64,000 bases of DNA, from contig OY760505.1 of NCBI GenBank assembly GCA_963663545.1, forward strand, positions 448,001-512,000, in the 5' to 3' direction. The stretch is from Candidatus Delongbacteria bacterium (lineage in GTDB: Bacteria > CAIWAD01). Of the stretch, positions 349 through 64,000 are shown piece after piece. Every line of letters begins with the position of its first letter. Position 1 is the first letter of the stretch. The position numbers were made by a program, and so were the translations under genes. Under the pieces are notes generated by a model. The model did not search any database and was not told where the DNA came from. It was given only the letters and a program-made list of their open reading frames with translations.

Positions 349-713
349 GGTTGTTCTCCTTATTCCGTACACGCACAAGCCATCTCCCGTTGATGGAGCA
401 CGCGAGTCTCTGGATGTTTAGTGAAAAGTGATTTTGCTGCCACAGCCAAGGGCAAATGCTGTGCCTGAATGATAACAGTGAGTTTTAACCGGAAGTTGCC
501 ACTTCTGACAACCAAATATTGCGCTAACGGTTGTTCAATTCAGGTCTGTGGTTGTTCCAAATCCAACAATACCAATTCGGCATTCTCGCTATGGATCTCA
601 CCTGTCTATGGGTATTCTTGCTCAAGACGGTCAGCAGTCTTGATCTCGCTACTATCGACGGCTCTTTGGCGCTGTGACACTGTTATGAAAACGCGTGTCG
701 TGTTACAAGAGAT

Positions 714-3104
714 CTACTCCAGCGTGCTCACCGCCACCACTCGATACCAGGCCTGCTCCCTCTGCAGCGCGTCGTGATCCAGATAAGAAGGCGAGTACAC
801 AGTCGCGATCAGATCGGCCGCGCTCGGCTCGGCCCAGGGAGTGGGCACGCGGTACACCAGCCAGTGGTCGATCGGACGCGGATCCTCCCAGCCAAGAAGG
901 ACACTGTTCTCACTGAGCTCGATTGTAAGCCTGACTGGACTCGCTGCCAAGGTGGATTCGTTTCTGGCAATCATCACCATGCCGGTATAGGCACTACAGA
1001 AGAGCAGACTTGGACGCGGATCACCAGGTAGCGTCACCCACTCGAAAATCCCCACGCTCTCGATGTTCCAGGGACAGGACTGCCGCAGTCCCATGCCAGT
1101 CCAACCGCCCAGATTCTCGTAGTGATACAATGCTGTGTGGACGAACTTAAAGAAATCCAGATCGCCGTCCAGGTCTGCATCACACATGCTCACAGGTCCA
1201 TAGTCGTTGTGCAGGTCGGCAAAGGGCAGATCTACTTCGTCGAAACCTTCTATCCCGTGATTGACAAGAGTCCGTACATAGGGGCGAGAGTACATCCCAC
1301 CATAAGCCCACAGATCCAGATCACCATCGCCCTCAACATCCAGCATCCGAATCTCTTCACCGGCAAAGGACCTGAACTCATAACCAAAGTGATCCTCTAT
1401 CCAGCCTCCAGCCGTTCCCCACCAGACAGTGAAGCCGATGAGGGGAGAACTGGCGGCAATGTCAAGCAGACCGTCGCCATTCAGGTCGCCGACTTCGAGC
1501 TGGTACACAATATCTTCCTGATCGAATGGCTGAATTGCAGGCACCATACTTCCCGCGCCGTCCGAATTCCACATGAGAATACCTGTGCCGCTTCCGCCAA
1601 CAAACAGATCCTGATCGCCGTCACCGTCGATATCGTGGATGCAAACCCGCTCCGGTTGAAGCTGAGTCGGCAGTTCATGACGGGTCCAAACACACGCCGG
1701 ATGTCCATTCTCGAACCATTGCACATAGCCGTCCTCATCCCTGCCGAAAACAAGATCCAAGTCTTCATCACCATCCAGGTCCGCACTGAAAAAGGGCAGA
1801 GTAGCTGGAATACACTCAGCGATGGTGGTCAGCCGGTAGCACCCGGCATGGCTCAAGGTCGGGTCGTACAGGATCAGGCAGGAGTCCGCTGCATCGCAGA
1901 CGATGATTTCCGGTTCGCCGTCCAGGTCCGTGTCACACATGGTTGCAGAAGTGGCGCTCCGTGGCTTGTAGGCAACAGGACGGAAGACGAGCTCCTGGTC
2001 GCTACGGCGTACAACGGAAACTTGATCCATCGAGGCCACTACCGCACCAGACAGCTGTCCCTCCTCCGGATCGAGTGAAGCCAGCGCAGATATACTGCCA
2101 GCATTCGTACGAATCAGCTGTGTCGGCCAGTCTGCGCCTGTCTGCTGTGGATTCTGCGAAAAGTAGATCTCGCCATTGCTGGAACCTGAAAGCAGGTCAG
2201 GCGCTCCGTCTGCGTTCCAATCGAGTAGCTGGACTTCCATCGATCGCCCAGTATTCGCCGGGACTCTGTGTGACAGCCACGTTCCCTCATCCGACAGACG
2301 ATTCTCGTACCACATTAGGCATGTCTGCGACATGCAAAAGCTGACAATGTCCGGATCCCCGTCTTCGTCCAGATCCGCGATATCGAGACACTTCATGCGG
2401 TTTCTGTTTTCTGAAAGCTGCTCCTCTGCGCCCATCTCCCCATGGCCAAGATTCCTCCAGCCAAGCAGGTAGCCATCGTTGGAAGTCATCGCCAGCAAGT
2501 CAGGCGCTCCATCCGTATCCAGATCCACGCTGCAAAGATGGATCAGTGCCGTTGTGCAATTTCCCAGTACTTCGGGCGCGGTGAAATGCAGCCCGGGCAC
2601 TTGCAGGCAGCGTCGCAGAGTCTGTCCGCTAGCATAGCCGCAGACCAGATCCGGCAGGCCGTCCGAGTTCAAATCGGTGACACACAGGGAGAGCAGTGCC
2701 TCATCAACAAGCACTTCGTGATACATGAAAGTGGCCACCTGGTTCTCGTAAACAGCCAGCACTCCTTCGCCCGGGCTGAGCAGCACCAGATCCAGATCGC
2801 CGTCGCCCTCCAGGTCCACCAGCACCGGCTGCTCCGGGTTTGCCAGCTGCTCGCCAATGAGATGAACGGCTGCGCCCGGCATGTCGGCCTCGTCGGACTC
2901 GTACCAGTACACGCCGCCGGGATCGCTGTAACACACCAGCAGGTCCTGGTGGCCGTCGCCGTTCAGGTCGCCGCTAGCAACCGCAGTGGGCTCACCGGGC
3001 AGGAAGTCAACTTCCTCCGGATGATGAAACTGGATGTGCTGGGCGTGTGCGGCTGTAAAGCAGCCTGCCAGTGAAAGACAAAGAAGCGTTGCCCTGGTGT
3101 TCAT
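714..3104 (-). CDS. Secreted FG-GAP/VCBS repeat protein with C-terminal 'YRVxA' domain
   Basis: Many DxD/NGDGxxDL repeats; signal peptide MNTRATLLCLSLAG; GGAGG RBS before ATG 3104. Confidence 0.9.
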   Translation of the reverse strand: MNTRATLLCLSLAGCFTAAHAQHIQFHHPEEVDFLPGEPTAVASGDLNGDGHQDLLVCYSDPGGVYWYESDEADMPGAAVHLIGEQLANPEQPVLVDLEGDGDLDLVLLSPGEGVLAVYENQVATFMYHEVLVDEALLSLCVTDLNSDGLPDLVCGYASGQTLRRCLQVPGLHFTAPEVLGNCTTALIHLCSVDLDTDGAPDLLAMTSNDGYLLGWRNLGHGEMGAEEQLSENRNRMKCLDIADLDEDGDPDIVSFCMSQTCLMWYENRLSDEGTWLSHRVPANTGRSMEVQLLDWNADGAPDLLSGSSNGEIYFSQNPQQTGADWPTQLIRTNAGSISALASLDPEEGQLSGAVVASMDQVSVVRRSDQELVFRPVAYKPRSATSATMCDTDLDGEPEIIVCDAADSCLILYDPTLSHAGCYRLTTIAECIPATLPFFSADLDGDEDLDLVFGRDEDGYVQWFENGHPACVWTRHELPTQLQPERVCIHDIDGDGDQDLFVGGSGTGILMWNSDGAGSMVPAIQPFDQEDIVYQLEVGDLNGDGLLDIAASSPLIGFTVWWGTAGGWIEDHFGYEFRSFAGEEIRMLDVEGDGDLDLWAYGGMYSRPYVRTLVNHGIEGFDEVDLPFADLHNDYGPVSMCDADLDGDLDFFKFVHTALYHYENLGGWTGMGLRQSCPWNIESVGIFEWVTLPGDPRPSLLFCSAYTGMVMIARNESTLAASPVRLTIELSENSVLLGWEDPRPIDHWLVYRVPTPWAEPSAADLIATVYSPSYLDHDALQREQAWYRVVAVSTLE

Positions 3105-3374
3105 GATTCCCTCCCTGCTACAGTTCACGGTGGCACCGGTTGCGCATAAGACAGCGGCGTTCCGTTTAACCGAGGCGCATGAGCTGACCTGTGAGTTGTG
3201 CAGGGGAAAATAGGGTGCGTTCTACGCTCATCCAAGAGGATTCTGGCCGGACAGGTCAAACGGGTTGGCGCAAGTGGGCGTGTTTCAGGGAAAAAGCTGA
3301 ATTGCTCTATCGCGCTGTGACACATGTCGAGTCTAGAGACGTCAGCGGTTGTGTCACCTGCCACTAGAGAAGAA

Positions 3375-3396
3375 AGAGCGGGATGGCTCCCGCTCT
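3375..3396 (-). terminator. Probable intrinsic terminator after ftcd
   Basis: AGAGCGGGA-tggc-TCCCGCTCT hairpin with T-rich tail on the minus strand. Confidence 0.6.
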
Positions 3397-3466
3397 GGTT
3401 GTTTGCAATCTGGGACTCCGATACCGATCCGACTCCATAGGAGTCGGCACCGATACCGATCAGAAG

Positions 3467-5161
3467 CTAGCCTTTGTACGACAGCTTCTCCTCCACGGCC
3501 TTCAGCAGTGCGCTGCGGCGCTCATGCAGCTTCTGCTGGATCTCCGCCGTGCGGGTGTTGATGTCGGCGGCCCAGGCTTTGTCGGTGATGTCGGCCAGGT
3601 TGATGCGCACGTTCATGGCGGCGCCGTCACACGCAGTGCCCAGACACAGCGCGGCCACACCGGCATCGGAAAGCGAATTCTGGTTGCCACGGGCGGCGAC
3701 GGCCTCGATCAGGTCCAGCACCGGCAGGCAACGCTCGACCACCTCGAAGGGCACCAGGGTCACATGCTGCTGCGCCTCTTCCATCGCTGTAGCACGAAGG
3801 GCTTCCTGCTCCGCCGTGTCCTTGGGAAGACGTCGGGCGGCGATCATGGCGTCAAAGGCTTCTGTATCACGGTCAACGGCGGCCAGGAAGAATTCCTTGT
3901 GGCCCTGTCCCTCGACGGAGATGCGATCCATCTCCTCGTTGTACTTGGTATAGCCCTTCTTGCCGTGGGTCAGATTGGCTACCATGGCCGCCAGCGAAGC
4001 CGCCAGCGCACCACAGAGGGCCGCCGTGCTGCCTCCGCCGGGCGCCATTGCGTCACTGGCCAGCAGATCGTTGAAGTCGTTGATCTTGAGGTCCACCAGG
4101 CGACCGCTGCGCTTCTGCACACGGTAGTCGACGATCTTCTTCTCGATCTCGAAGGGGTAAAGATCGGCCAGGCCCATGGAACGTACGGCGCACTCCACCA
4201 GCTCGCGCTCGCTGACGCCGGCGGGTTTGCCCTGCTTGCGCAAGTAGAAGCGCCCGGCCTCCAGCAGGCTAGCCAGTGGTACCAGGCCGACGATCTCGGC
4301 ACCCGTGACACGCATGCCGCGCTTCTCCGCCTCGGCGCAGATGGTGTCGAAGCACTGGTGCAGCGGCGTCAGCTTGTAGTTGGTCAGATTCATCGAGATC
4401 TGCGCACGACCGCCGAAGTCGTCGATGTACCAGCCGACGGCCTTGGTGTTCTTCAGCAGGCCGTCCTGCTTCAGGCGATTGCCTTCTGCATCACGCAGGA
4501 ATTTGCCGCTCTCGTCACGGGCAAAACGACCGCTCTCACGCACCGTCAGCGCGATATCGTGTGCCAGCGCGGCGTCGCGCGTATTCAGATTGAAATTCCA
4601 GGCAATCAGGAATTCGCGGGCGCTGATGGCGGTTGCCCCGCTCTTCTGCTGACGCTCGCCGAACGCTGCCGGACCGCAGTCGGGCTTCCACTCGGGATCG
4701 GCCAGTTTGTGACCCAGGCCTTCGTACTCGCCACTGCGCACGGTGGCCAAGTTGCGGCGCTGCTTGCTGGTGGCGGCGTGCTCGTAGAAGTAGACGGGAA
4801 TCTGCAGCTCGGCACCGACGCGCTCGCCCAGCTGGTGGGCCAGCTCGGCACACTCTTCCATGCTGATGTTGCTCACAGGCACGAAGGGGCAAACGTCAGT
4901 GGCGCCAAAACGCGGATGCTCGCCGTGATGATGACGCATATCGATGACTTCGGCGGCCTTCTGGATCACGCGGAAAGCGGCCTCCTTGACGGCCTCGGGC
5001 TCGCCGACAAATGTGATCACCGTGCGGTTGGTGGTCTCGCCGGGGTCCACATCCAGCAGCACCACGCCCTCGACGGTCTCAACCACATCGGTCACCGCCT
5101 TGATTTTCGCCTTGTCACGGCCTTCCGAGATGTTGGGTACACACTCAACAATGCGCTTCAT
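3467..5161 (-). CDS. ftcd: Bifunctional glutamate formimidoyltransferase / formiminotetrahydrofolate cyclodeaminase
   Basis: N-terminus MKRIVECVPNISEGRD, HxGEHPRFGATDVCPF motif, C-terminal APGGGS cyclodeaminase domain. Confidence 0.95.
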   Translation of the reverse strand: MKRIVECVPNISEGRDKAKIKAVTDVVETVEGVVLLDVDPGETTNRTVITFVGEPEAVKEAAFRVIQKAAEVIDMRHHHGEHPRFGATDVCPFVPVSNISMEECAELAHQLGERVGAELQIPVYFYEHAATSKQRRNLATVRSGEYEGLGHKLADPEWKPDCGPAAFGERQQKSGATAISAREFLIAWNFNLNTRDAALAHDIALTVRESGRFARDESGKFLRDAEGNRLKQDGLLKNTKAVGWYIDDFGGRAQISMNLTNYKLTPLHQCFDTICAEAEKRGMRVTGAEIVGLVPLASLLEAGRFYLRKQGKPAGVSERELVECAVRSMGLADLYPFEIEKKIVDYRVQKRSGRLVDLKINDFNDLLASDAMAPGGGSTAALCGALAASLAAMVANLTHGKKGYTKYNEEMDRISVEGQGHKEFFLAAVDRDTEAFDAMIAARRLPKDTAEQEALRATAMEEAQQHVTLVPFEVVERCLPVLDLIEAVAARGNQNSLSDAGVAALCLGTACDGAAMNVRINLADITDKAWAADINTRTAEIQQKLHERRSALLKAVEEKLSYKG

Positions 5162-5289
5162 ATCTGCTCCTTGTGCATTTGTCTGCTCAAGCCACTCACT
5201 GGCTGCAAAGTAGCAAACGGCAAGTGGCCACCAATTCGTGATACACGAAAAGAAAAGGCCGACTTGCGCCGGCCTCAATCAATCGTTTG

Positions 5290-6531
5290 CTAGAAGCGGT
5301 ACCCGGAGGGAATCTGCGTTGAGCGCGCAACGACGATAATGCCGTCCACGACTTCGATGAACTCGTCGCGGTACTCCGTCAGCCGCTTCTCGTTGATCAG
5401 TTTGACGTCGGCGCCAATGCGCGCACCCTTGTCGATAATGGCGCCGCGGATGTGTGTATCACGACCGATGGCCTGAGGCAGCATGCCCTCCGGCGGCGAC
5501 TGGAAATCGTACTCGTCCGCACCCATCAGGATGCTGTCCTCGATCACCGCGCCCTGGCCGATGACGCTGCGGATGCCGATCACGCTGTGCCAGATGCGAC
5601 CGCCGTTGATAAAGCAGCCGTCGCAGATCACCGATTCTGTCACACGGCAGTCGTGCAGTTTGCTGGGCGGCAGGTAGCGCGCGTTGGTATAGATCGGGCG
5701 CTCCTGGTGATACAATTCCACCTCAGGCACACGGCGCGTCAGCATCAGGTTGGCCTCGTAGAAGGAGCGGATGGTTCCGATGTCCTCCCAGTAGCCGTCG
5801 TGCATGAAGGCATGTACGCGATCGCTGTCGATCGCGTGGGGAATGATCTCGCGGCCAAAGTCGGTGCAGTCCTCGTGCGTGTCCAGCAGCCGCGTCAAGG
5901 CTTCGGTATCAAAGACGTAGATGCCCATGCTGGCCAGATAGCGACCGTCCGCTTGCGCAAGCTCGCGCAGCTCCTCTTCGGTTTTGGGCTTTTCAACGAA
6001 GCGGCGAATGCTGCCGTCGGCGTTGGTGTGCATGATGCCGAAGCCCTTGGCTGCATCACGCTTCACCGCCGTCGTGGCCACGGTCACCGGGCACTCACAG
6101 CGGATGTGTGACAGCACGAGTTCGCCTAGATCCATGGTGTAGAGCTGGTCACCGGATAGGATCAGCACGTGTGTCGGATTGTACGCGCGCAGATGCGGCA
6201 GCACCTGGCGCACCGCGTCCGCCGTGCCCTGGAACCAGTTGGCGTTGTCCGGCGTCTGCTCTGCCGCGAAGACCTCGACGAAACTGTCGCGGAAATCGCG
6301 CATGTAGTAGCTGTTGTGGATGTGGCGGTTCAGCGAATAGCTATTGAACTGCGTCAACACATAGACCTTGGTCAGGCCCGCGTGAATGCAATTGGAAAGG
6401 GGAATATCCACCAAGCGGTACTTGCCGCCGAAGGAAACCGCTGGCTTGCTGCGGCGACGCGTCAGTGGCATCAGGCGCGAGCCCTGTCCACCGCCGAGGA
6501 TTACGGTCACGACCCTGTCGAGTCTCTCCAT
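5290..6531 (-). CDS. glgC: Glucose-1-phosphate adenylyltransferase
   Basis: ILGGGQGSRLMPLT...KPAVSFGGKYRLVDIPLSNC, WFQGTADAV, FVEKP. Confidence 0.97.
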   Translation of the reverse strand: MERLDRVVTVILGGGQGSRLMPLTRRRSKPAVSFGGKYRLVDIPLSNCIHAGLTKVYVLTQFNSYSLNRHIHNSYYMRDFRDSFVEVFAAEQTPDNANWFQGTADAVRQVLPHLRAYNPTHVLILSGDQLYTMDLGELVLSHIRCECPVTVATTAVKRDAAKGFGIMHTNADGSIRRFVEKPKTEEELRELAQADGRYLASMGIYVFDTEALTRLLDTHEDCTDFGREIIPHAIDSDRVHAFMHDGYWEDIGTIRSFYEANLMLTRRVPEVELYHQERPIYTNARYLPPSKLHDCRVTESVICDGCFINGGRIWHSVIGIRSVIGQGAVIEDSILMGADEYDFQSPPEGMLPQAIGRDTHIRGAIIDKGARIGADVKLINEKRLTEYRDEFIEVVDGIIVVARSTQIPSGYRF

Positions 6532-6591
6532 CTCTTCCCCCTGTCCATCTTGCCCAAAGTTGTATCACGTCAACATCAATGTAACACAGGT

Positions 6592-7251
6592 TCACATCAT
6601 CGTTGCCAGGCGCTCCACCAAGTGGTGAATGCCGCGCTCTACTTGCAAGGGAGACACCGCGCTGTTCCAGGCGGAAACCGTGACCAGCCGGTTGCCCTTG
6701 TCGACGCAGATTTCATCGGCGGCGCAATTCTGATGGGTGGCTCCCCAGCCCTCAACCATGCCTGCCAACTCCGCATTGTCACCCAAGGTGACTAGCGGAT
6801 AGCGACCCGCCTTTCCCAATACATGCGCAGCGATAACCGGTGCAATGCAAATGAAGCCCAGGCATCCATGCTGTCGATGCATACTCAACACCGCCGCTTC
6901 CACCTGCGGATGCACACTCATGGCTTGTCCGTCGTAGGCGAAGGAACACAGATTTTTAGCCACACCAAAACCGCCCGGGAAGATCAAACCCTGGAAATCT
7001 GCCGGTGTGAGCTCACTCAAGGGACGAATGGCACCGCGCACAATGCGGGCCGCCTCACGCATCTGGTTGCGTCCCTCCTGAGCCGCCTCTCTGCCTGTGT
7101 GATCCACCACATCGCGCTGCGCCTCATCGGGCGCAAACCATTCCACCGCAATCTCGTTTCGCGCAAGTGCAAGCAGCGTGCAAACGACTTCCTGAATCTC
7201 GGAGCCGTCATATACACCGCAGCCGGTGAGAATTCCAGCGACCTTTTTCAC
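6592..7251 (-). CDS. elbB: ElbB/ES1-type glyoxalase (DJ-1/PfpI superfamily)
   Basis: GCGVYDGSEIQE, FPGGFGVAKNLC, ICIAP; GTG start at 7251 after AGGAGG. Confidence 0.9.
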   Translation of the reverse strand: MKKVAGILTGCGVYDGSEIQEVVCTLLALARNEIAVEWFAPDEAQRDVVDHTGREAAQEGRNQMREAARIVRGAIRPLSELTPADFQGLIFPGGFGVAKNLCSFAYDGQAMSVHPQVEAAVLSMHRQHGCLGFICIAPVIAAHVLGKAGRYPLVTLGDNAELAGMVEGWGATHQNCAADEICVDKGNRLVTVSAWNSAVSPLQVERGIHHLVERLATMM

Positions 7252-7290
7252 AAGTCCTCCTATTGCAAAACGGAGAGTAGCACTCAATAC

Positions 7291-7319
7291 AAACCGGCCC
7301 CCCTTGCGGGTGGGCCGGT
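7291..7319 (-). terminator. Probable intrinsic terminator
   Basis: ACCGGCCC...GGGCCGGT stem followed by TTT on the minus strand. Confidence 0.55.
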
Positions 7320-7366
7320 AGCGTGTTCAGACAAGATAGGATCGCAGCAGGTGGGAATCAGGCTTC

Positions 7367-7576
7367 TCAAGCCTCCACATCGGGATTCTGCTCCAGACCC
7401 TTCTCTACCATTTGATCCTGGATCCTAGCGCGCGACCAACAAGTCTCGCAATAATAGGTCTCCGGAATGCTGAAATCGGGGTAGTACATTTCCTGATCAT
7501 TCTCGGTCAAACACACAGCGCACTGCATGCCGGGCTGCCAAGGGACAGCGCGTTCCTGGTTGACGGGTTCAAACAT
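7367..7576 (-). CDS. Small putative zinc-binding protein (CxxC...CxxC)
   Basis: 69 aa with CAVC and CETC; GGAGG RBS; directly downstream of rny. Confidence 0.7.
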   Translation of the reverse strand: MFEPVNQERAVPWQPGMQCAVCLTENDQEMYYPDFSIPETYYCETCWSRARIQDQMVEKGLEQNPDVEA

Positions 7577-7626
7577 AGTCTACCTCCAGGGTTGGTAACA
7601 ACCGCCTCGGATGGCTATCAACTGCC

Positions 7627-9165: not shown

Positions 9166-9274
9166 CAGTTCTCCGTATATGTACGTTTCCTTCTGGGGAA
9201 GCAAACAAGAGTACTAAATGGTACGCTGATTTCGGAGCACAAAGTGTTATCGACCGAGGAATCTGAAGCTGGGA

Positions 9275-11193: not shown

Positions 11194-11230
11194 GCCGCTT
11201 TCCAAGTACATGCAGGGTTCTAAAAACCCC

Positions 11231-11252
11231 GCGGGGTCCAAGCGGACCCCGC
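11231..11252 (-). terminator. Probable intrinsic terminator after pepA
   Basis: GCGGGGTCC-aagc-GGACCCCGC hairpin with TTTTT nearby on the minus strand. Confidence 0.55.
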
Positions 11253-11285
11253 AGGCAACTGTTTCTCGTTTGCGAACCGGAAGAA

Positions 11286-23152: not shown

Positions 23153-23153
23153 C

Positions 23154-47152: not shown

Positions 47153-47154
47153 GC

Positions 47155-48699: not shown

Positions 48700-48833
48700 T
48701 CGAACTTGGGGCTTAAAGCACCTGACAGCAGCTCGCTACTCTTCTCATTCGAAGCTCAGGTTTGATCTGCTCACGAGGAGTGAATTGATGTGTCACGTAC
48801 TGCTGATCCAATTGCTGAAAATGTGTCCGCTCA

Positions 48834-51021: not shown

Positions 51022-51184
51022 GGCATCACTCCTGATTAGGCACGGGTCACTCCGTACTACACAGAGAATCCGCGAGGAGGGCAAAGGTTCAGCGGCGCAC
51101 GAAAAAACATCTGTGTTGCGTGGGACAAAGTAACACGAGCAAAGAAAAGGGCGACCCAAGGGCCGCCCGTGTGACACATCATGA

Positions 51185-52810: not shown

Positions 52811-52911
52811 GCATCCTCCTATTTGGAAGGCGCAAAAATGGGAAAGGCGCGCCGTACTCCAAAGGTCGGTCGCGCCTTGAAATGTCGCATTCACTGCATT
52901 ACGCGGTTGTA

Positions 52912-54729: not shown

Positions 54730-54909
54730 CGGGACTTTCCTTGAGAAAAAAGCGAGGAAGGTAGGAAATGCAAAGCTGACTGACACGGTTTGCCGCAAAA
54801 CAGTTTTGGCGGACTCCGCCGGTCCACTAACCAAGGATTGTGTATGGCTGGAATGCGGCCATGCGCTGCAGTAGCGTTCGCCTGTTGATACCGATAGCGA
54901 TTAGGGAGG

Positions 54910-55725: not shown

Positions 55726-55726
55726 A

Positions 55727-57544
55727 TCAAATCCTTTCCGGTGTGGGAATGCCCATGATGTCCAGGCCCTGGCGAATGGCGGTGCCGACAGCGTCCACCA
55801 GCGCAATACGCTGCTGCGCCAACTCGGGGTCGTCCACGCGATCAAAGACGCTGTGGGCGTTGAAGAAGCGCGAGAAAGCGCGCGCCAGCTCGTAGGTGCG
55901 GGTAGCCACACGCGAAGGGTTGAACTGCGCCGCCGCCTGCTGTACTTCCAGTGGCCAGAAGGCCAGCTGCTTCAGCAACTCCACTTCCTCTTCGTTGCCC
56001 AGCTTGTCGAATTGTGTCACAGCGGCAGCATCTACTCCGCTCTTGCGAATCAGACTGCGAATACGCGCCTGGGCGTACTGCAGATAGGGGCCGGTATTTC
56101 CCTGCAGGTCGATGGACTCCTTGGGATCGTAGAGCATGTCCAGCTTGGGATTCACCTTGAGCACGAAGTACTTCAGCGCGCCCAGCGCCAAGGCGTGGAC
56201 CACTTCTTCCTGCTCTTCCACAGGCATATCCAGACGACGTTCGCCCTGCTGCATCACCTCGCGACAGGCATCCTTCAGCTCCTGCAGCAGATCGTCGGCA
56301 TCCACTACGCGGCCCTCGCGACTCTTCATCTTGCCGGTGGTCAAGTTGACCATGCCGTAGCTGAAGTGCAGCAGCCGGTCAGCCCAGTCGTAGCCCAGCT
56401 TTTGTAACACGTGAAAGAGCACGCGAAAGTGGTGTTCCTGCTCGTTGCCGACGACGTAGATCATGCGCTGAAAGTCCAGCTCGCGCTGACGTGCTACAGC
56501 GGTGCCGATGTCCTGCGTCATGTAGAGACTGGTACCGTCGCTGCGCAACAACACCTTGGGTTGCAGCTTGAGTTCTTCCAGAGAGCAAACCACAGCGCCC
56601 GTGTCATTGCGCTCAAGCGAACCCTTATCCAGGCCTGCTTCAATGATATCCCGGCCCAGCAAGTAGGTGTTGCTTTCGTAATACACGCGATCGAAGTGCA
56701 CGCCAAGTTCGCTGTAGGTCTGCTCAAAACCATCGAACACCCAACTATTCATCCTTTCCCAGAGCTGGCGTACGGCTGTATCACCGGCCTCCCAGTCACG
56801 CAGCATTTGCCGCACGGCCGACAGCAACTCGCTCTTCTCGCCAAACTCCTGCTCCAGCGCATCCTGCTCGTCGCGCGGGAGAACTTTCGGGTCCACACCC
56901 TTGGCCGTGTACCAAGCGTCCTGTTCGGCTTTCAGCTTTTGGGCAAAGAGCACGTAAAAACGGCCCACCAGGTGGTCGCCCTTCTCGCCGGAGCTTTCGG
57001 GTGTAACGCCCTCGCCCCAGCGCTGCCAGGCCAACATGCTGCGGCAGATGTGCACACCACGATCGTTGATCAGATTCACGCGTGTTACATCGTGCCCCGC
57101 CACCGACAGTAGATTGGCCAGGCCCTCGCCCAGGATGTTGTTGCGCACATGGCCCAGGTGCTGGGGCTTGTTGGTGTTGGGACAAGAATACTCCACCACC
57201 ACACGCTCGCGCTCGGCGTCCGGCAGCTGCGGCAGCCCCTCGCGCTGAGCGAGGATCACATCGCTGAACCAGCGGGTCACATCCACCTTGAGGTTGAGGT
57301 AGGGGCCAGCGGCGTTCACCTCTGTCAGTGGCGCTTTGCCTTCGAGCCGCGCAGCCAGCTCCTGGGCGATCTGCTGGGGCGCGCGTCGGCAGGCTTTGGC
57401 CAGCGGAAAACAAGCAAAGGCCAGATGTCCCATGGCAGCGTCGGGCGGCAGTTCGACAGAAAGGCTGCGCGGGTCCAACTCAACATTAAAAGCGTCCTGG
57501 ACACTGTTGCTGATCAGTTTGAGTACTTGTGATACAAGGCTCAT
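55727..57544 (-). CDS. argS: Arginine--tRNA ligase
   Basis: VEYSCPNTNKPQHLGH, KMKSREG, GNTGPYLQYA, IPTPERI. Confidence 0.97.
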   Translation of the reverse strand: MSLVSQVLKLISNSVQDAFNVELDPRSLSVELPPDAAMGHLAFACFPLAKACRRAPQQIAQELAARLEGKAPLTEVNAAGPYLNLKVDVTRWFSDVILAQREGLPQLPDAERERVVVEYSCPNTNKPQHLGHVRNNILGEGLANLLSVAGHDVTRVNLINDRGVHICRSMLAWQRWGEGVTPESSGEKGDHLVGRFYVLFAQKLKAEQDAWYTAKGVDPKVLPRDEQDALEQEFGEKSELLSAVRQMLRDWEAGDTAVRQLWERMNSWVFDGFEQTYSELGVHFDRVYYESNTYLLGRDIIEAGLDKGSLERNDTGAVVCSLEELKLQPKVLLRSDGTSLYMTQDIGTAVARQRELDFQRMIYVVGNEQEHHFRVLFHVLQKLGYDWADRLLHFSYGMVNLTTGKMKSREGRVVDADDLLQELKDACREVMQQGERRLDMPVEEQEEVVHALALGALKYFVLKVNPKLDMLYDPKESIDLQGNTGPYLQYAQARIRSLIRKSGVDAAAVTQFDKLGNEEEVELLKQLAFWPLEVQQAAAQFNPSRVATRTYELARAFSRFFNAHSVFDRVDDPELAQQRIALVDAVGTAIRQGLDIMGIPTPERI

Positions 57545-57582
57545 GGTCTTCCTTTCGGTGCGTGATACAGATCGCACTCGGT

Positions 57583-58038
57583 TCAACTCCAGTCAGATAG
57601 CTGGCGCAGGCCCTCGTAGGCCACAATCGCCACGCTGTTGGCCAGGTTCAAGCTGCGCGTACCACCAGGCATGGGAATGGTTAGCGTCTGGTCGTGATAC
57701 ACTTTCAGCAGATCCTCCGGCAAGCCAGCGGATTCGCGTCCAAAAACCAGCCAGTCTTCGCGCTGAAACACGTGGGTCGTGTAGGAACGTGTTCCCTTGG
57801 TCGAGAAGAAGCGAAAACGGTCCTCGCCGTATCGTTCCAGCAGTAGATCCAGGCTAGGTACTACGGTGAACAGGGTGCGCTCCCAGTAGTCCAGACCGGC
57901 CCGCTTCAAGCGCGCGTCGTCCAGACTGTAGCCCAGAGGTTCCACCAACCACAGGCGCGAACCTGTACAGGCACAAAGGCGAATGATGTTTCCGCTGTTC
58001 TGGGGGATTTCCGGCTCCACCAGCACGATATTGAACAT
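57583..58038 (-). CDS. trmL: tRNA (cytidine/uridine-34-2'-O)-methyltransferase
   Basis: PEIPQNSGNI, KRAGLDYW, FGRES, RSLNLANS. Confidence 0.96.
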   Translation of the reverse strand: MFNIVLVEPEIPQNSGNIIRLCACTGSRLWLVEPLGYSLDDARLKRAGLDYWERTLFTVVPSLDLLLERYGEDRFRFFSTKGTRSYTTHVFQREDWLVFGRESAGLPEDLLKVYHDQTLTIPMPGGTRSLNLANSVAIVAYEGLRQLSDWS

Positions 58039-58250
58039 GGCGTCCTCAAAAAGCATTGAATATCGGGCAGCCAGCCTGCAGGCGCAAGTTTGGCGTGAGT
58101 ATTGCTGCCGTAGCGGTTTGGAATGCAGGAGTCGACATTGCCTGACGCCGCAACAGATTGCCGTCCGGCCTGCACGAGCATTGCCCCTGCGAAGCTTTTT
58201 CCTTACTTCTGAACCAGAGGCGCGAAAGTGCGCGCTTCGAGGAGGTGATC

Positions 58251-59444
58251 ATGTACCGCTATCTGCTCGTTCTTCTGTTGCTACCCGTCATGCTTCTGGC
58301 CAGTGTACGCGGCAAGCCTGCACGCGTGGATCTGCACACGAGCGAAAACAGCCTGTCGCCGGGCCAGAGCTTTCGCGTACTGCTTGATCCCAGCGCCGAT
58401 GGTTTTGTCTACGTCTACAGCCTGGACGGTCGCGGCTACGTAAGCCTACTCTACCCTACCCTACCCGAGGATGGGCGCGGCGAAGTGCAGGCTGGCCAAC
58501 TTGTCGTCCTTGATCCGGTCTATGCCGGCCAGGAAAGCGGCAAGGAAACCCTTGTGGCTGTGCACACCCTGGAGTATCGCCCCATTCGCAGTTCACGGCA
58601 CGAGTTCCTGGCGCCCGATCCCGGCGACCTGCAAGATGTCAACGCGCGCCTGACCCGTGTGGACAAGGAACTGGACGTCTACAGCACCTGGCAGATCGAG
58701 ATCATCGGCCCGCCTGCCGCGGAAGAACAGGTGGGCATTGTGATTCACGATCATGTCTACGATTACTGGTGTCCCTATTGCGGTTGCTGGCACCCGCGCT
58801 GTACGCACAACCATTGCTATTGCGGATGGGAAGTGGTCGGCTACTATCACAGCCACTACCATTACGGCCACTGTTTCCTGTGGGGACATCCGCACTACGG
58901 GTGGCACCCACCGCTGTTCTACAGCTACGCGCCCGGCGGCAGTGACTGGGATTACGACACCAGCATTCCCCGTGAAGAATCGCCGGAAGTCTGGGAACGC
59001 TACCATGGCTTCAGCGAGCAGTGGCGCACGGCGGATCGTGAAGAAATCGATCCCGCGAGCTGGATTGATCCCCCCAAACGCGAAGGACCGCCACATCCCG
59101 ATGAAGCGGACATTCGCTCAGCCATTTCGCGTGTCACATGGAACGGCCCTTTGCCCGATGGTGTGTCACAGTGGAACACTGATCGCGGCTATGAGCCTTC
59201 GCCCCTCAACGCCGTCCAGCCTAGACCGGTGGAAGAGCGCAGCACACGCAGCCGGCAGGTTCAAGTAGCTCCGCGTGTTACAACACAGCCCGCAGCTCCG
59301 GCTGTGGCTGCACCGGATCAGAAGCTGCCCCAGGTCACACCAGCGCCTCCGAAGGCGGAAGAAGCTCCCAAGACGAAGCCGAAAGCGCCGACGAGCCGGA
59401 GCAAACGCACGCGGACTACGGGCAGCGACGACAAGAAGAAATAG
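58251..59444 (+). CDS. Secreted DUF4384-like protein with His/Tyr/Cys-rich middle and Pro/Lys-rich tail
   Basis: GGAGG RBS; signal peptide; DGFVYVYSLDGRGYVSLLYP. Confidence 0.8.
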   Translation: MYRYLLVLLLLPVMLLASVRGKPARVDLHTSENSLSPGQSFRVLLDPSADGFVYVYSLDGRGYVSLLYPTLPEDGRGEVQAGQLVVLDPVYAGQESGKETLVAVHTLEYRPIRSSRHEFLAPDPGDLQDVNARLTRVDKELDVYSTWQIEIIGPPAAEEQVGIVIHDHVYDYWCPYCGCWHPRCTHNHCYCGWEVVGYYHSHYHYGHCFLWGHPHYGWHPPLFYSYAPGGSDWDYDTSIPREESPEVWERYHGFSEQWRTADREEIDPASWIDPPKREGPPHPDEADIRSAISRVTWNGPLPDGVSQWNTDRGYEPSPLNAVQPRPVEERSTRSRQVQVAPRVTTQPAAPAVAAPDQKLPQVTPAPPKAEEAPKTKPKAPTSRSKRTRTTGSDDKKK

Positions 59445-59465
59445 TCGCCTTGGCCAGCCTATCAC

Positions 59466-59492
59466 AAGCCCCGCGCACAGCGGGGCTTTTCG
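59466..59492 (+). terminator. Intrinsic terminator
   Basis: AAGCCCCGC-gcaca-GCGGGGCTTTT. Confidence 0.75.
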
Positions 59493-59653
59493 TTTGTCTA
59501 CAGACAGACGGTAGATCGATGGAAGCTGCGGCTAGCTTTCCCCTGGTTGAAGAGCGGGAACTCGTATCACGAGCACTCAGCAGGAGTGAAGGGAGCGAAC
59601 CACAGGCTCCATGCACACCCTCATGTATCACAAGCCTGCTTGCGATGAAAAGA

Positions 59654-59684
59654 AACACCCCCTATCCGGAGACAGGGGGTGTAT
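59654..59684 (-). terminator. Probable terminator of the 59707-62049 gene
   Basis: ACACCCCCT...AGGGGGTGT stem with T-rich tail on the minus strand. Confidence 0.6.
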
Positions 59685-59706
59685 CACATTCAAATGGCGT
59701 CAGGTC

Positions 59707-62049
59707 TTACTTGACCAGCACCAGCTTCTGAGACAGCGTGTGATGCTCACCCTGCAGACGGGCGAAATACACACCACTGGCCAGCGCGCTGGCGTCAAAG
59801 ACGGCTTCCATCTCACCACCCGTGGCAGAGCCCTCAAAGAGGGTGACCACTTCCTGACCCTGCAGGTTGAAGACCTTCAGGCTGACCTGCTCACCAGCGG
59901 CGGCAGCGTAGCGCAGTGTGGTCGTCGGGTTGAAGGGGTTCGGGAAAGCGGGGCTCAGCGAGAAGAGCTCGGGCTGGGCCACAGGCTGCTCGACACTGTC
60001 GAACCACTCGACGTTGGCGAACATCTGCAGCTCACGGGCCTGGATGCCTTCAGAGAAGCTCAAGTCATAGTCGCCCATGGCGTAGTGACCACCGTTCCAG
60101 ATCATCGGTCCGCCCAGCGGGAAAGGATATCCATCGGGCAACACGACCTCAACCCAGAAGTCACCGGCGATTTCCACGGCGGGCTCAACGGGCAACTCAA
60201 GCAGCACGGCTTGGCCACCGAACTGGTTCAGCGTGAAGCTGTCGTTCACCAGCACTTCACCGGGGGTACCTTCGTTGTCAGCATAGACCTTCAGGGTGAT
60301 GGGCACACCGGCGGTATCCTCATCGGGATCATAGAGGCCGACCACAACCGAGTTCAGTATAACGTTGGTCATGTTCAGTTCGCTCTCGCTGGCAACGAAC
60401 ATGACGGGATTGTCTTCCCAGTAATTGGCGGACTCGCCGTAGCAATAGCTCAGCACGTAGTCACCGGGCGCAAGCACTTCAATGGGGCTGACGTACATGG
60501 TGTCGTTTTCGGGAATGCTGTCCTCGGGATTGTCACAAGCAGCCTTCAGCTCGTGATCGGTGCCAGCAGCTGCGGGCGTCCACCTGGCCGTGGTGCCAGC
60601 TGTGGTCAGACTGGGTAGATCCACGCGGTCAGCGGGCCCCACCAGCTCGCTGTCGGCAAACAGCCAGCTCAGCACCTGCTCGTGATCGTTGGAGCCCATG
60701 TTGCCGATCTGCAGGAAAACCTCGGTCTCGAAACCTTCGGTACGCGGAAAGGCGGGAATCACTTGCAGCATAGCCAAGTCATTGGCCGCTACATCACTGG
60801 CAATAACTTCAAAATCGTCAATGAAGAGGCCTTCGCCAATGCCACCGTCATCGTCGTAATCGGTCTCAACACGGATGCGGATCTGGACATCCATGCCCGA
60901 ATACGCATTCAGGGACATGGCAATATTGCCGTTATACGGCGTCTGGGGTAGGTAGTGCTCCCAGGTCGTATATCCTGGACGTCCAGCATCGCGATAGTCA
61001 TAGAACATCGCGTCCCAGGTCAAACCGCCATCATCCGTAAGATCCACGCGATAGAGGTCTTCCACGTAGGTGTCATCGTTGCCGTCCGCATCCAGCATGT
61101 GGTTGTAGATCCAGAACTGGAACCAGCAATCCATGTCCTCGGGAATGCTGATGACCGGGGTCACCAGTGCGTCGGCCATACCATAAGCGGCAATGGGGCA
61201 ATGGGCAGAAGTGTTGGGGCTGTGAGAGTCTTCGGTAGTAAGCTCCCAAAAATCGCCAGCGCTGCCACCGGAAGCCTGAGTGAAGTCTTCGGGGATAGCG
61301 GTTCCATCGGCATCGTTGTCGAGCAGAGTGTCGGCACCATCGGTAATCAGCACATCGTCAATGATCATGCCCCAGATGTTGGCGTTGTTGCTGGTGTCAT
61401 AGGAACCATCCGCGCAGAAAGCCCAACGCACGACGATGTCGTGACCGACATAGCTGCTCAGATCAACACTCGCATCCACAAAGCTGGGGATGGTGCCGGC
61501 CCAGGCGGGAATGCCCGTGCCCATACCAAACTCGTTGCCAAAGGCGAAGGAGGAAGAGTAGCCGTAAGCGGGAGAGACGTTCTCGAGAACGACAAAGTCA
61601 CCGCCGTCCACGCTGATCCACATGTTGCAGGAATCCCAGCAATCGTAGCCGGTGGGCTCGTCGCCGGGGGCTTCGGTCGCGTAGCGCAGCTTGAAAGTCA
61701 ACGTTGGGCTGCTCAATGCGGACATGTCCATGCTCGGCGTATCCAGATACTGCAAAGTATGGCTGGCATATCCGTGCAAAGCCTCAACGCCCGACCACCA
61801 GGAATTGCCTTCGTAGGAATGGAAAGTACTGGAGTGCCAGGTGGGATCCACTGCGGCCACATCGACGGTGGTCCAGTCACCCAACCCGCTCTCGAAATCC
61901 TCAGAGAAAATCACGGTCTCCAGGCGGGAACCGTCGTTCGACGGCTGTCCGTTCATCCTGAAGGTCTTGTAGTGGTCGGCCTGCGGGGCTGCTGCCATGG
62001 CAGATCCGACAACAACACTAGCGATGCACAACGTGAGGGTTGCTCTCAT
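59707..62049 (-). CDS. Secreted acidic multidomain protein (MAM/immune inhibitor A-like beta sandwiches) with T9SS type A-like C-terminal domain
   Basis: Signal peptide; FSEDFESG, IIDDV/FIDDF; C-terminal FPNPFNPTT...ASGVYF...KLVLVK. Confidence 0.88.
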   Translation of the reverse strand: MRATLTLCIASVVVGSAMAAAPQADHYKTFRMNGQPSNDGSRLETVIFSEDFESGLGDWTTVDVAAVDPTWHSSTFHSYEGNSWWSGVEALHGYASHTLQYLDTPSMDMSALSSPTLTFKLRYATEAPGDEPTGYDCWDSCNMWISVDGGDFVVLENVSPAYGYSSSFAFGNEFGMGTGIPAWAGTIPSFVDASVDLSSYVGHDIVVRWAFCADGSYDTSNNANIWGMIIDDVLITDGADTLLDNDADGTAIPEDFTQASGGSAGDFWELTTEDSHSPNTSAHCPIAAYGMADALVTPVISIPEDMDCWFQFWIYNHMLDADGNDDTYVEDLYRVDLTDDGGLTWDAMFYDYRDAGRPGYTTWEHYLPQTPYNGNIAMSLNAYSGMDVQIRIRVETDYDDDGGIGEGLFIDDFEVIASDVAANDLAMLQVIPAFPRTEGFETEVFLQIGNMGSNDHEQVLSWLFADSELVGPADRVDLPSLTTAGTTARWTPAAAGTDHELKAACDNPEDSIPENDTMYVSPIEVLAPGDYVLSYCYGESANYWEDNPVMFVASESELNMTNVILNSVVVGLYDPDEDTAGVPITLKVYADNEGTPGEVLVNDSFTLNQFGGQAVLLELPVEPAVEIAGDFWVEVVLPDGYPFPLGGPMIWNGGHYAMGDYDLSFSEGIQARELQMFANVEWFDSVEQPVAQPELFSLSPAFPNPFNPTTTLRYAAAAGEQVSLKVFNLQGQEVVTLFEGSATGGEMEAVFDASALASGVYFARLQGEHHTLSQKLVLVK

Positions 62050-62252
62050 GTTGCCTCCTGCGGTTAAGATATGTTGTCCCGTTTGTTCACGATTCGAGTG
62101 GGGGGGGCTGTCTTGTACCCTTTGTAACACGGTTGATAATAGTGAACGGCAAGCCACAGCGCAATACTAAGCCTCTGTTAGAACAAGAAGGAAGCGTTGC
62201 TGGCAGCTTGCGCCCAAGTCTTTACCTTGTAGCCAGCAAACCAGAGGTGAAC

Positions 62253-64000
62253 ATGAATTCCAATCTACTGCGCCTGTTTCTGCTCGCCGCGACAGCGCTT
62301 TCGCTCCAGGCGGAACCCCTGGATGCAATTCTGGATGGCCCGCGCCCCGGATTGCGTGCCGCAGCGGACCGCGCCTGGTTGCTGGAGGAAACAGCCGATC
62401 TGCCCACACCCGTGTGGCCTCGCCCTCGCGCAGACTGGTTGCAGGGATCGCCCAGCCCGGCGCTATTGTGGCACCGTGCCGCCATGCCCTGGCGGCTGGA
62501 ACACGAGTACCGGCACACCGAGGGGTGGGAGGGCTTGCGCGAAGCCATGGCACGCATGCTCTCCAGCCAGGCGCCTGATAGCCTGGTGCTGGAGCCGGAA
62601 GGCCTGCTGGGATTGCACCACGAAGAGCTGCTGTTCAGTCTGGATCTGCGCTTGCCGATGGGCCACTTTGAGGCCGAGACGGACGCGGAAACGCGCTCAA
62701 TAGACGAAAGTGGCATCGGCGCCGACATGGAAGTCTTCTATGGCAACAGACTTGCCGCCTGGATGCGTTTTCGCGACGCGGGCTGGTCGGGGGATCTGGA
62801 GGTGCTCGATCATCCCGCCTTCACGCAGGATGACGAATGGGCCTGGGACCAGTACCAAGTTGGCACCAAAGATGTCAGCCACGACGAAACGCGCGCCGGG
62901 CTGGTATGGATGCCCTGGCGCAAGGAGCACTCGCGTCTGCTGTTGGGCCTGCAGCGGGAGCAGGTCCGTTGGGGTACGGGCCTGTTACGCACCGTGCTGA
63001 TCAACGGGGATCACGCGCCAGCCATGTCCACGGGCGGATTTCGTCTGGATGTGGGCCATTTCGATTTTCAATGGATGACGGCAGACCTGGAAAGCCGCGT
63101 GGCCGATTCGCTGAACGCGCGCACCGATGAGTCCGGTCTGACCAAGATTCCCTTTCGCGAAAAGTGGATGATCGCTCATCGGCTGGGTTGGCATAATCGC
63201 CACTTCAGCCTGGGCGTGGGCGAAATGATCATCATGGGCGATGAAGGCGTCGGCCTGGGCTATCTCAATCCGGTCAACTTCTACTGGAGCGAACAGCACG
63301 CGCGCGGCGATCGCGAAAACACCTTGCTGCTTTTCGATGCCCGAGTGCGCGTGCCCTCGCTTGTGCCCGGCCATTGGATGCTGAACGCGGAGCTGTCGGT
63401 CGACGACTACACCATGGCCGATTGGGGCGATGAACTGGAAGGCCAGAAGACGGCCAGTTTGCTGGGCTTCTCCGGCACGCCGCTGAAGACGAGCGCCGAT
63501 CATCTGGCGATGGAGTTTTTCGGTCTGCGCCTTCCGGGCATCAGTTGGCTGACACTGGAGCAGGTTCGCGTGCGCCCCTATTTCGGCACACACTTCTACG
63601 CTGTCAGCCGTCTGGATCACGGCCTGCGCTCGCTGGGTGCCTGGGAGCACCCCAACACGCGTATCACGGAATGGGAATGGCGGCACGAACTGCTGTTGAC
63701 TCCGCGCTTCCTCGCGGCCAACCAACTATTGTTGACAACGCGTATCACGGGCGGCCATCTGGTACACGGGCAAAACTATCTGGACGAGAACGGCACGCTG
63801 GTGAATGTGGGCGGCGATCGCTTCCTGCCCCATCGCGAGTGGGCCGACGTGCAAGAAAGCCCTTTCCTGGCGGGTGTGCTAGAGACCCACGATTGGCTGA
63901 CCTTCGGCCTGGGCCTCGACTGCGCCCTGATGATGCCGGGCAAGTGGATTCCGCTACTGGGACGTCAGCGCGATCTGGTGGATCTGGGGACACTGAGTTT
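62253..64000 (+). CDS. Wzi-like outer membrane (capsule assembly family) protein, partial
   Basis: Hand translation from ATG 62253 (GAGG RBS): MNSNLLRLFLLAATALSLQA...AHRL...YLNPVNFYWSEQH..GDREN; appears to run off the window end and is not in the ORF track. Confidence 0.7.
   Translation, partial: MNSNLLRLFLLAATALSLQAEPLDAILDGPRPGLRAAADRAWLLEETADLPTPVWPRPRADWLQGSPSPALLWHRAAMPWRLEHEYRHTEGWEGLREAMARMLSSQAPDSLVLEPEGLLGLHHEELLFSLDLRLPMGHFEAETDAETRSIDESGIGADMEVFYGNRLAAWMRFRDAGWSGDLEVLDHPAFTQDDEWAWDQYQVGTKDVSHDETRAGLVWMPWRKEHSRLLLGLQREQVRWGTGLLRTVLINGDHAPAMSTGGFRLDVGHFDFQWMTADLESRVADSLNARTDESGLTKIPFREKWMIAHRLGWHNRHFSLGVGEMIIMGDEGVGLGYLNPVNFYWSEQHARGDRENTLLLFDARVRVPSLVPGHWMLNAELSVDDYTMADWGDELEGQKTASLLGFSGTPLKTSADHLAMEFFGLRLPGISWLTLEQVRVRPYFGTHFYAVSRLDHGLRSLGAWEHPNTRITEWEWRHELLLTPRFLAANQLLLTTRITGGHLVHGQNYLDENGTLVNVGGDRFLPHREWADVQESPFLAGVLETHDWLTFGLGLDCALMMPGKWIPLLGRQRDLVDLGTLS

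Follow-up and report, generated by a model that had tools for sequence, protein, structure and literature searches.

The heptamer GTGATAC as an over-represented DNA word in a Candidatus Delongbacteria genome, with dialects in related genera

The heptamer GTGATAC and its complement GTATCAC (together the core word) are written thousands of times into the genome of a Candidatus Delongbacteria bacterium (assembly GCA_963663545.1, contig OY760505.1). A 64-kb stretch of this genome with a G + C content of 58.3% (positions 448,001 to 512,000, or G000:C1:448001-512000; hereafter, the window) was analysed together with the whole genome and its relatives. We conclude with very high confidence that GTGATAC(A) is a real, lineage-specific signal at the level of DNA. 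The explanation favoured here, which we hold only tentatively and at somewhat less than an even chance, is that the word may be an uptake-sequence-like self word kept by a drive acting on the DNA itself.

Abundance of the word in the window and in the genome

In the window, GTGATAC was found in 46 copies and GTATCAC in 41, while base composition (an order-0 model) predicts 3.0 per strand. The pair is the most frequent 7-mer of the window (87 copies vs. about 6 expected). A first-pass annotation had described a hyper-abundant near-palindromic motif, GTGWYAC, with about 154 occurrences. Counted together with GTGACAC (18 copies), GTGTCAC (26), GTGTTAC (10) and GTAACAC (18), the core word gives a total of 159, and all 16 example coordinates of the annotation are right: position 674 is GTGACAC, position 700 is GTGTTAC and the remaining 14 are GTGATAC or GTATCAC. 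When synonymous codons were permuted inside each gene of the window (200 shuffles), the called genes contained 12.0±3.1 core sites (maximum 22) vs. 75 observed, and 29.1±4.6 sites of the six words (maximum 40) vs. 134 observed. The occurrences in the window are distributed as follows:

674..63748, no strand assigned: span of the six words (GTGATAC, GTGACAC, GTGTTAC and their complements), 159 occurrences, 87 of them core; first start 674, last start 63742
1122..57700, + strand: GTGATAC, 46 copies, with starts at 1122, 2718, 5238, 5707, 13455, 13800, 14168, 14679, 18445, 18542, 22700, 22749, 25159, 25542, 25894, 27668, 29533, 30602, 30871, 31731, 31819, 32058, 33849, 33925, 34747, 35488, 35827, 36585, 36677, 36707, 41297, 41438, 42068, 42426, 45423, 46257, 48556, 48575, 49325, 50324, 51819, 53341, 54572, 57529, 57562 and 57694
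3864..63748, - strand: GTGATAC read on the - strand (GTATCAC on the + strand), 41 copies, with starts at 3864, 5456, 6562, 7659, 11091, 11563, 13263, 13545, 14354, 15470, 15609, 18245, 18340, 18743, 24976, 25950, 27093, 28163, 28927, 29125, 31261, 34699, 34872, 35724, 37340, 39077, 39885, 41687, 42453, 43678, 44293, 47412, 50693, 53879, 55719, 56778, 59564, 59625, 59681, 63661 and 63742

The genome from which the window derives (G000) is a single contig of 3,721,866 bp with a completeness of 98.9%. It carries 4934 copies of the core word (2507 + 2427), about one per 750 bp, and 3149 copies of GTGATACA and its complement; the commonest 7-, 8-, 9-, 10- and 11-mers of the genome are all extensions of the GTGATAC word. 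Against the 2507 copies of GTGATAC on one strand, Markov models predicted 186 (order 0), 205 (order 2), 321 (order 3) and 614 (order 4). For both strands, this amounts to 372–1214 expected vs. 4934 observed, and the ratio of observed to expected is 4–13 for orders 0–4. Models of orders 5 and 6 approach the observed counts (1917 at order 5; 1459 for the 8-mer), which is circular because the sub-words are inflated by the motif itself.

Genes were called with a simple codon-statistics caller, which returned 2665 genes (87.7% coding) and missed some. The called genes contained 4354 sites. Shuffling of synonymous codons gave 735±14 and shuffling of codon order 265±12, so that under the codon-aware nulls the ratio stays at 6–16. 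Markov and amino-acid-preserving codon-shuffled nulls had both been proposed as checks by the first-pass annotation. Coding DNA has 1.33 sites per kb and non-coding DNA 1.27, and 88% of the copies lie in genes. All five stop-free reading frames are occupied (GTG ATA C, 948 sites; xGT GAT ACx, 1233; antisense frames, 732, 708 and 733), the frame that would read TGA has zero sites, and 2181 sites are in sense vs. 2173 in antisense orientation. The independence from coding and the balance of frames and strands exclude explanations based on RNA, peptides, codon usage or transcription.

The absence of a strand skew, which had been read from the window, extends to the whole genome, where the two strands carry 2507 and 2427 copies and about 53% are on the leading strand. 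The polarity with respect to replication is weak, with 2632 leading and 2296 lagging copies (53.4%; sum of bins), and corresponds roughly to what a GC skew of 4% would give a word with one net G.

Structure of the motif

The full preference of the motif is b-GT[G>a][A>t][T>c]AC-r. At position -1, the frequencies are C.42, T.31, G.21 and A.05, and at position +8 they are A.64 and G.22, in agreement with the Y...R flanks noted earlier in the window. Only positions -1 to +8 are informative, and the 25 bases on each side are otherwise at background; hence, the word is not part of a longer repeat. Repeat elements (repetitive extragenic palindromes, REP, or miniature inverted-repeat transposable elements, MITE) were rejected, as there is no extended conserved sequence and 88% of the copies are genic. 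An extended palindrome formed by coupled flanks was likewise rejected: A at +8 follows 61% of words with C and 62% of words with T at -1, so the flanks are independent.

Among the 21 single-letter variants of GTGATAC, all changes at positions 1, 2 and 7 are at or below expectation. The enriched variants are central: GTGACAC (1994 copies, 4–5 times the expectation), GTGTTAC (1155, 3–6.5 times) and GTAATAC (539, 1.9–4.3 times). The enriched family consists of exactly the eight words of the degenerate palindrome GTRWYAC. The definition GTGWYAC was therefore right in its optimum, GTGATAC, and too narrow in its extent. Similarly, the statement that GTAATAC/GTATTAC is near background holds in the window (8 copies vs. 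4.2) but not in the genome as a whole, nor in sister genera, where the word reaches 11–18 times the expectation. By our own arithmetic, the hybrid GTG-A-TAC occurs about three times as often as expected from independent half-sites. The optimum therefore has a genuine asymmetry, and within a strict GT...AC frame the centre is softer. Among the single-letter variants in G000, none of the neighbours that C-to-T deamination would produce was selectively depleted.

Distribution along the genome and word-poor regions

The spacing of the word is clumped, with a genome-wide coefficient of variation (CV) of 1.83. Of the genes of at least 1.5 kb, 97 of 667 have no site, vs. 36.8 expected. Genes with the strongest codon bias and those with the lowest GC have the fewest sites for their length (0.78 and 1.00 per kb, respectively). 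Pairs within 60 bp are 83 (+-), 106 (-+), 116 (++) and 95 (--), that is, 189 inverted vs. 211 direct.

Thirteen 20-kb segments have six sites or fewer (mean 26.5). Nine of them, eight full segments and a 1.9-kb remnant at the contig end, form one block at 3.56–3.72 Mb (G000:C1:3556000-3721866, about 165 kb), in which the G + C content per segment is 46–59% and lies below the genome value of 56.7% in seven of nine. The block contains four copies of an IS200-type transposase, IS110 and IS66 transposases and a Rha-like regulator, as well as a second, diverged copy each of xseA, cca, add, rnfC and a dnaA-like gene, which share 25–59% identity with their counterparts elsewhere in the genome. The block is a large island of foreign DNA or else a chimeric end of the contig. 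Other empty patches coincide with transposases, a glycosyltransferase/polysaccharide cluster, a che and [FeFe]-hydrogenase cluster and an Mrr nuclease. The word is a sharp marker of native vs. foreign DNA, which flags islands and the possibly chimeric end at 3.56–3.72 Mb.

Dialects in related genomes

GTGATAC is present in all 12 genomes of the class, in 62–4934 copies. The counts of the 7-mer are 4934 in G000, 3176 in G002, 1870 in G004, 1563 in G010, 1515 in G009, 1032 in G003, 911 in G011 (67% complete), 539 in G001, 226 in G005, 188 in G008, 79 in G006 and 62 in G007. The 19 outgroup genomes have 14–95 copies of the 8-mer. Dialects were analysed in 400-kb samples of each relative with second-order Markov expectations.

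In G002 (58% GC), GTGATAC is at 14 times the expectation and followed by A in 78% of copies, and CGTATACG is at 12.5 times. In G004 (65% GC), GTGATAC reaches 10 times and GTAATAC 18 times the expectation, with a strong 5' C and a weak 3' A; on these enrichments and flanks, its word is CGTRATAC. The corresponding values are 2.9 times for GTGATAC, 7 times for GTGATACA and 14 times for TGTGATACA in G009, which belongs to the other family (51% GC), and 2.2 times for GTGATAC and 10.8 times for GTAATAC in G001. The sample of G005 (69% GC) has 14 copies of the 7-mer vs. 10 expected, 12 of the 14 being followed by A.

In G003 (63.5% GC), the top word is the palindrome GTATAC, with 214 sites (10.8 times the expectation) and Y...R flanks; CGTATACG is at 24.6 times, TGTATACA at 27.5 times, GTGATAC at 6.8 times and GTAATAC at 14 times. 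Genes of G003 contain 193 GTATAC sites vs. 38.7±6.1 after synonymous shuffling, divided among three frames as 109/19/65, and coding DNA has 0.556 sites per kb compared with 0.399 in non-coding DNA. GTATAC in G003 is a DNA-level word as well. In G000, G004 and G009, the same palindrome is at 0.5–0.6 times the expectation, which may reflect avoidance of restriction. The theme common to the dialects is Y-GT(-/G/A)ATAC-R. The G003 sample also has CGTGATCC at 3.9 times the expectation, and the word TGTATCAC was noted in another genome.

Cost to proteins and conservation of sites

Of the ATA and TCA codons of G000, 26% and 13%, respectively, fall within the word. For comparison, 400 kb each of the word-rich G002 and the word-poor G005 were used, from contigs with earlier matches, which is a non-random choice; they gave 141 and 88 orthologue pairs, respectively, with a mean amino-acid identity of 58% and a nucleotide identity of 61–63%. 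The dipeptides encoded by the word are raised in G000 relative to G005 (VI 168/119, DT 159/90, VS 211/163, IT 113/88 and YH 48/26), while the control dipeptides are flat (VL 333/350, YQ 52/54, HY 32/28 and TD 118/122). Amino-acid identity at word codons is 0.43 vs. 0.58 overall for G002 and 0.41 vs. 0.585 for G005. For the uptake signal sequences (USS) of Pasteurellaceae and the DNA uptake sequences (DUS) of Neisseriaceae, Findlay and Redfield (2009, PMC2817400) report approximately doubled frequencies of the encoded tripeptides and sites at poorly conserved residues.

Conservation at orthologous positions, another check proposed earlier, exceeds background. Of the G000 sites in the G002 alignments, 43 of 233 (18.5%) are found at the same place and in the same orientation, vs. 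7.5% of all 7-mer windows (z about 6). One-mismatch states are scarce in G002 (4.3% vs. 17.8%), and most of the other sites differ at 3–6 letters. As there are so few near-misses, each site is either perfect or unrelated. Such a pattern fits a force that creates sites at tolerant positions and then keeps them perfect, and it is compatible both with true conservation and with repeated gain at permissive places.

Contigs from public sequencing runs (two studies, three samples) carry positions 24001–44000 of the window; five runs contain the stretch, and in the four compared the long pieces are identical to the window over 20 kb. The only exception among the long pieces is one of 224 letters with 5 differences; the few others are in short low-depth or foreign contigs. 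The three samples represent essentially one clone, and the assembly may derive from one of the runs. In a search for closer relatives, Dxs was scanned against metagenomes (80 loci kept) and gave none above 52% identity. In a genome scan with BipA, the closest match had at most 71% identity, and the best named matches were from Calditrichota, Melioribacteraceae and Bacteroidales (58–68%).

Genes of the window and other words

The window is ordinary chromosome, with ftcD, glgC, rny, nadA, pepA, ispH, dxs, bipA, argS, an AcrB-type efflux pump, sigma-54 activators and a subtilase. The following genes illustrate how the word is distributed among them:

31004..36715, - strand: gene of a 1902-aa subtilase-domain protein, the densest carrier of the window (15 core sites, 2.63 per kb)
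13686..15569, - strand: dxs (DXP synthase), a housekeeping gene, 5 core sites (2.65 per kb)
52912..54834, - strand: bipA/typA, 3 core sites
59707..62157, - strand: gene of an 815-aa protein with a type IX secretion system (T9SS) sorting tail, 0 core sites in 2.4 kb, an example of the site-free genes behind the clumping

The five core sites of dxs show that the word is written into conserved genes too. One of two window genes with orthologues at 73–75% nucleotide identity is bipA/typA (four of five sister genomes searched).

A gene for a Crp/Fnr-family regulator is located at window positions 30256–30942 (+ strand). TGTGA is a Crp-type half-site, and a word preceded by T starts with these letters; T is at -1 in only 31% of the copies, and no second half-site follows.

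Other words were also frequent. Those containing GAAGAG/CTCTTC are 2.4 times over-represented in G000 (CGAAGAG, CTTCTTC), and CTCTTC is the top 6-mer by z-score in the G009 sample. The commonest 12-mers of G000 are phases of the tandem hexamer ACCGATACCGAT (66–81 copies), which indicates a GATACC-type tandem repeat somewhere in the genome.

Candidate reader genes

A complete type IV pilus cluster is present in G000 at 2,732,806–2,748,836, with genes for pilin, PilT, three pilin-like ORFs, PilMNOPQ, PilB, PilC and PilD. The genome also encodes a ComEA-like HHH_3 protein, ComEC and DprA. In the class, ComEC was found in 12 of 12 genomes and secretin in 11 of 12, the word-poor ones included, and the N6_N4 methyltransferase and N6_Mtase families each in 12 of 12. 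Owing to this universal occurrence, none of the four is informative for co-distribution with the word. The first-pass annotation had suggested a search for methyltransferase, ComP-like or nucleoid-protein genes co-distributed with the word; competence and pilus genes and orphan methyltransferases are present, though equally so in word-poor relatives.

Vsr was found in 4 of 12 genomes (G002, G003, G005 and G006) and not in G000, G001, G004, G007, G009–G011 or G012. For C5 methyltransferases the count is 5 of 12 genomes, and none was found in G004 or G009–G011, which have 911–1870 copies of the word. A drive by classical m5C/Vsr patch repair does not fit, as both kinds of enzyme are scattered and do not follow the word.

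Two conserved methyltransferases of the adenine/N4 type, apparently orphans, are candidates. The first is a small beta-class N6/N4 enzyme (G000:381006-382118); among the 11 relatives in the class, 10 have it at 53–68% identity, and the 19 outgroup genomes gave a single homologue (43%). This methyltransferase has no nuclease neighbour, and in seven of eight relatives of the same family (f1) it adjoins a gene for a TPR-like lipoprotein, the closest homologue of which in G000 is 18 kb away from the methyltransferase. Compared with solved structures, this enzyme had only distant matches (CcrM, RsrI, DpnA and an N4-cytosine enzyme; E 5e-13 to 7e-7). The other orphan, of 575 aa (G000:1575133-1576860), is Eco57I-like (gamma-class, NPPY) and has 40–47% identity in eight of eight f1 relatives; no orthologue was found in family f2. 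Eco57I-like methyltransferases read asymmetric sites. Both orphans are equally present in the word-poor genus g6.

Discussion

Reading the word as an uptake-sequence-like self word supposes a drive on the DNA itself, and not on RNA, protein or codon usage, that would keep about one copy per 750 bp in long-resident DNA. A component of the type IV pilus or competence system would bind the word, as in the USS/DUS model. DNA of the same species bearing the word would be preferentially taken up and recombined, and mutations creating or perfecting a copy would be over-transmitted. Copies would accumulate where protein function tolerates them and their decay would be corrected, while foreign DNA would start without the word. 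In Neisseria, the uptake receptor is ComP; for the present lineage, we infer sequence-biased uptake, as well as the protein that would read the word. This explanation is favoured because the optimum is asymmetric, because all reported population-genetic signatures of USS/DUS except terminator pairs are present and because the uptake machinery is complete.

Several observations weigh against it. GTGATAC is shorter than USS and DUS and has no flanking AT tracts, and the palindromic YGTATACR dialect and the GTRWYAC family look more like the sites of methyltransferases or restriction enzymes than like the uptake sequences known so far. Close inverted pairs of DUS and USS act as terminators in Neisseria and Haemophilus; here, such pairs are not in excess, and gaps of at most 40 bp number 246 vs. 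257±15 at random. Regular spacing was rejected too: the sites are clumped and no more evenly placed than by chance, with a CV of 1.03/1.20/1.37 in 10/20/50-kb segments vs. 0.90/0.95/0.98 in simulations. Finally, the pilus cluster is poor in the word, with 5 sites in 16 kb between the pilin gene and pilD compared with an average of about 21 for such a length, and as competence and pilus genes also occur in word-poor relatives, they do not explain the differences in density.

The main alternative, a serious one though less probable than the uptake reading, is modelled on the highly iterated palindrome HIP1 of cyanobacteria: an orphan methyltransferase would mark GTGATAC, and GTATAC in the sister genus, and methylation-dependent repair or recombination would bias mutation towards the sites or select them. 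In the model described for HIPs, methylation-dependent repair biases mutation to the site, and HIP density is about 1 per kb (Elhai 2015, PMC4390886). The density found here is of that order, and the enriched family is exactly the degenerate palindrome GTRWYAC. The main word of G003 is the perfect palindrome YGTATACR, while G002 also has CGTATACG at 12.5 times the expectation. Conservation of sites above background, reported for HIP1 together with a 10–90 kb periodicity and an argument for a chromosome-organising role (Xu et al. 2018), is shared by the present word. The distribution of the beta-class orphan (10 of 11 relatives of the class vs. 1 of 19 outgroups) and that of the Eco57I-like orphan (eight of eight in family f1) point in the same direction. 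However, the main word is not palindromic and its hybrid form exceeds the half-site expectation about threefold. The beta-class enzyme is just as conserved (64–68%) in genus g6, with only 62–226 copies, family f2 has the word but gave no Eco57I-like enzyme in the search, and the structural matches of the enzymes are only distant. Nor were Vsr in G000 and others, C5 methyltransferases in G004 and G009–G011, or a selective depletion of any deamination neighbour found.

The uptake and methylation readings may overlap or merge, given the report that methylated HIP1 raises natural transformation in Synechococcus (Kamoku and Nielsen 2024, preprint). The origin and function of HIP1 itself are still debated (Elhai 2015; Xu et al. 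2018; Kamoku and Nielsen 2024).

It is unlikely that the word is the binding site of an abundant chromosome-organising or nucleoid-associated protein selected at thousands of places. The strict GT...AC arms with three softer central positions do resemble two half-site contacts. Nucleoid proteins, however, rarely need exact 7-mers, selection alone would maintain about 5000 exact sites only at a high cost, the spacing lacks regularity, the density ranges 80-fold among genera of one family, which is at odds with an essential role in chromosome architecture, and no candidate protein was identified. The similar presence of the word in coding and non-coding DNA agrees with such a role, which has been argued for HIP1 (Xu et al. 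2018).

More improbable still is a Chi-like signal that would tame a RecBCD/AddAB-type nuclease, promote recombination or protect self DNA. It would account for a short asymmetric word that is abundant in native and absent from foreign DNA, and for HIP1 an effect like that of Chi has been suggested as one of two mechanisms (Kamoku and Nielsen 2024). Against it, only about 53% of the copies are on the leading strand, and Chi falls far short of the 12- to 13-fold excess and the one copy per 750 bp seen here.

The absence of any signal, with the word as a by-product of base composition, codon or amino-acid usage or a dispersed repeat, is next to inconceivable, since its one support, the order-5 Markov value of 1917 vs. 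2507, is circular, the codon-aware nulls fail 6- to 16-fold, non-coding density is equal, only positions -1 to +8 are informative, G005, with 69% GC, shows no excess of the 7-mer and the outgroups have only 14–95 copies of the 8-mer.

To our knowledge, genome-wide self words have been known only from two proteobacterial families (USS and DUS) and from cyanobacteria (HIP1), and a further case in a distant uncultured lineage makes the phenomenon more widespread. With considerable reserve, we advance the idea that self-recognition words spanning a whole genome arose independently a third time, in an uncultured phylum outside the Proteobacteria, with dialects passing from GTGATACA through GTRATAC to YGTATACR within one family. 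If it were true and one evolving reader, either a competence protein or an orphan methyltransferase coupled to uptake or recombination, accounted for all the dialects, the system would bridge two classes hitherto kept apart, the asymmetric, receptor-bound uptake sequences and the palindromic, methylation-linked HIPs, and the common mechanism would be a tagged self word favouring DNA exchange within the species. The graded series of 62 to 4934 copies, in three to four dialects of which one is palindromic, offers a comparative handle on the reader protein. New in this work are the structure of the GTRWYAC family, the dialect series with the palindromic YGTATACR, the all-or-nothing conservation and the clumped spacing, as well as the finding that Vsr and C5 methyltransferases do not track the word and the two conserved orphan methyltransferases as candidates.

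Judged mainly by titles, no publication on a GTGATAC motif was found, in line with the first-pass annotation, which had recognised no described motif. Among the matches listed, papers containing the word look unrelated by title, and matches to the bare word are primers only; in the one bacterial methylome paper concerned (PMC4417156), the word occurs only in a primer. As judged by title, the matches listed for the candidate phylum included no paper on a motif, and none of those listed for uptake sequences dealt with bacteria other than Proteobacteria. The proposal of an undescribed genome-wide recognition word, of the uptake, nucleoid-site or methylation-driven type, is therefore supported: the ratio of observed to expected did not approach one under the codon-aware nulls or under Markov models of orders 0–4, and no earlier description was encountered.

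Comparison with known systems

In Escherichia coli, CCWGG is over-represented through very-short-patch repair (Dcm/Vsr). A repair bias of this kind, enriching the site of a methyltransferase, would likewise give an excess at the DNA level in all frames. The present case differs in that searches found no Vsr in G000 and, in G004 and G009–G011, no Vsr and no C5 enzyme, in that there is no selective depletion of T-for-C neighbours and in that the excess is far larger.

Chi and KOPS (FtsK-orienting polar sequences) are also short, asymmetric, over-represented words. They are strongly co-oriented with replication, in contrast to the leading-strand share of about 53% found here.

HIP1 (GCGATCGC) and the alternate HIPs share with GTGATAC the density of about 1 per kb, the use of several frames, conservation above background, the replacement by other words in some lineages and the presence of orphan methyltransferases. 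The word described here is AT-richer and non-palindromic, its spacing is locally clumped, C5 methyltransferase and Vsr do not track it, and no enzyme of known matching specificity was found.

USS and DUS differ from the present word in that GTGATAC belongs to an uncultured non-proteobacterial lineage, has 7–9 informative positions without AT-rich flanks, forms no inverted pairs and is near-palindromic, with one dialect a true palindrome. GTGATAC resembles them in being short and asymmetric and in occurring thousands of times, on either strand, within and between genes and in every usable frame. The likeness extends to the raised frequencies of the encoded peptides, the placement at weakly conserved residues, the absence from recently acquired DNA, the existence of dialects and the presence of the pilus, ComEA, ComEC and DprA genes.

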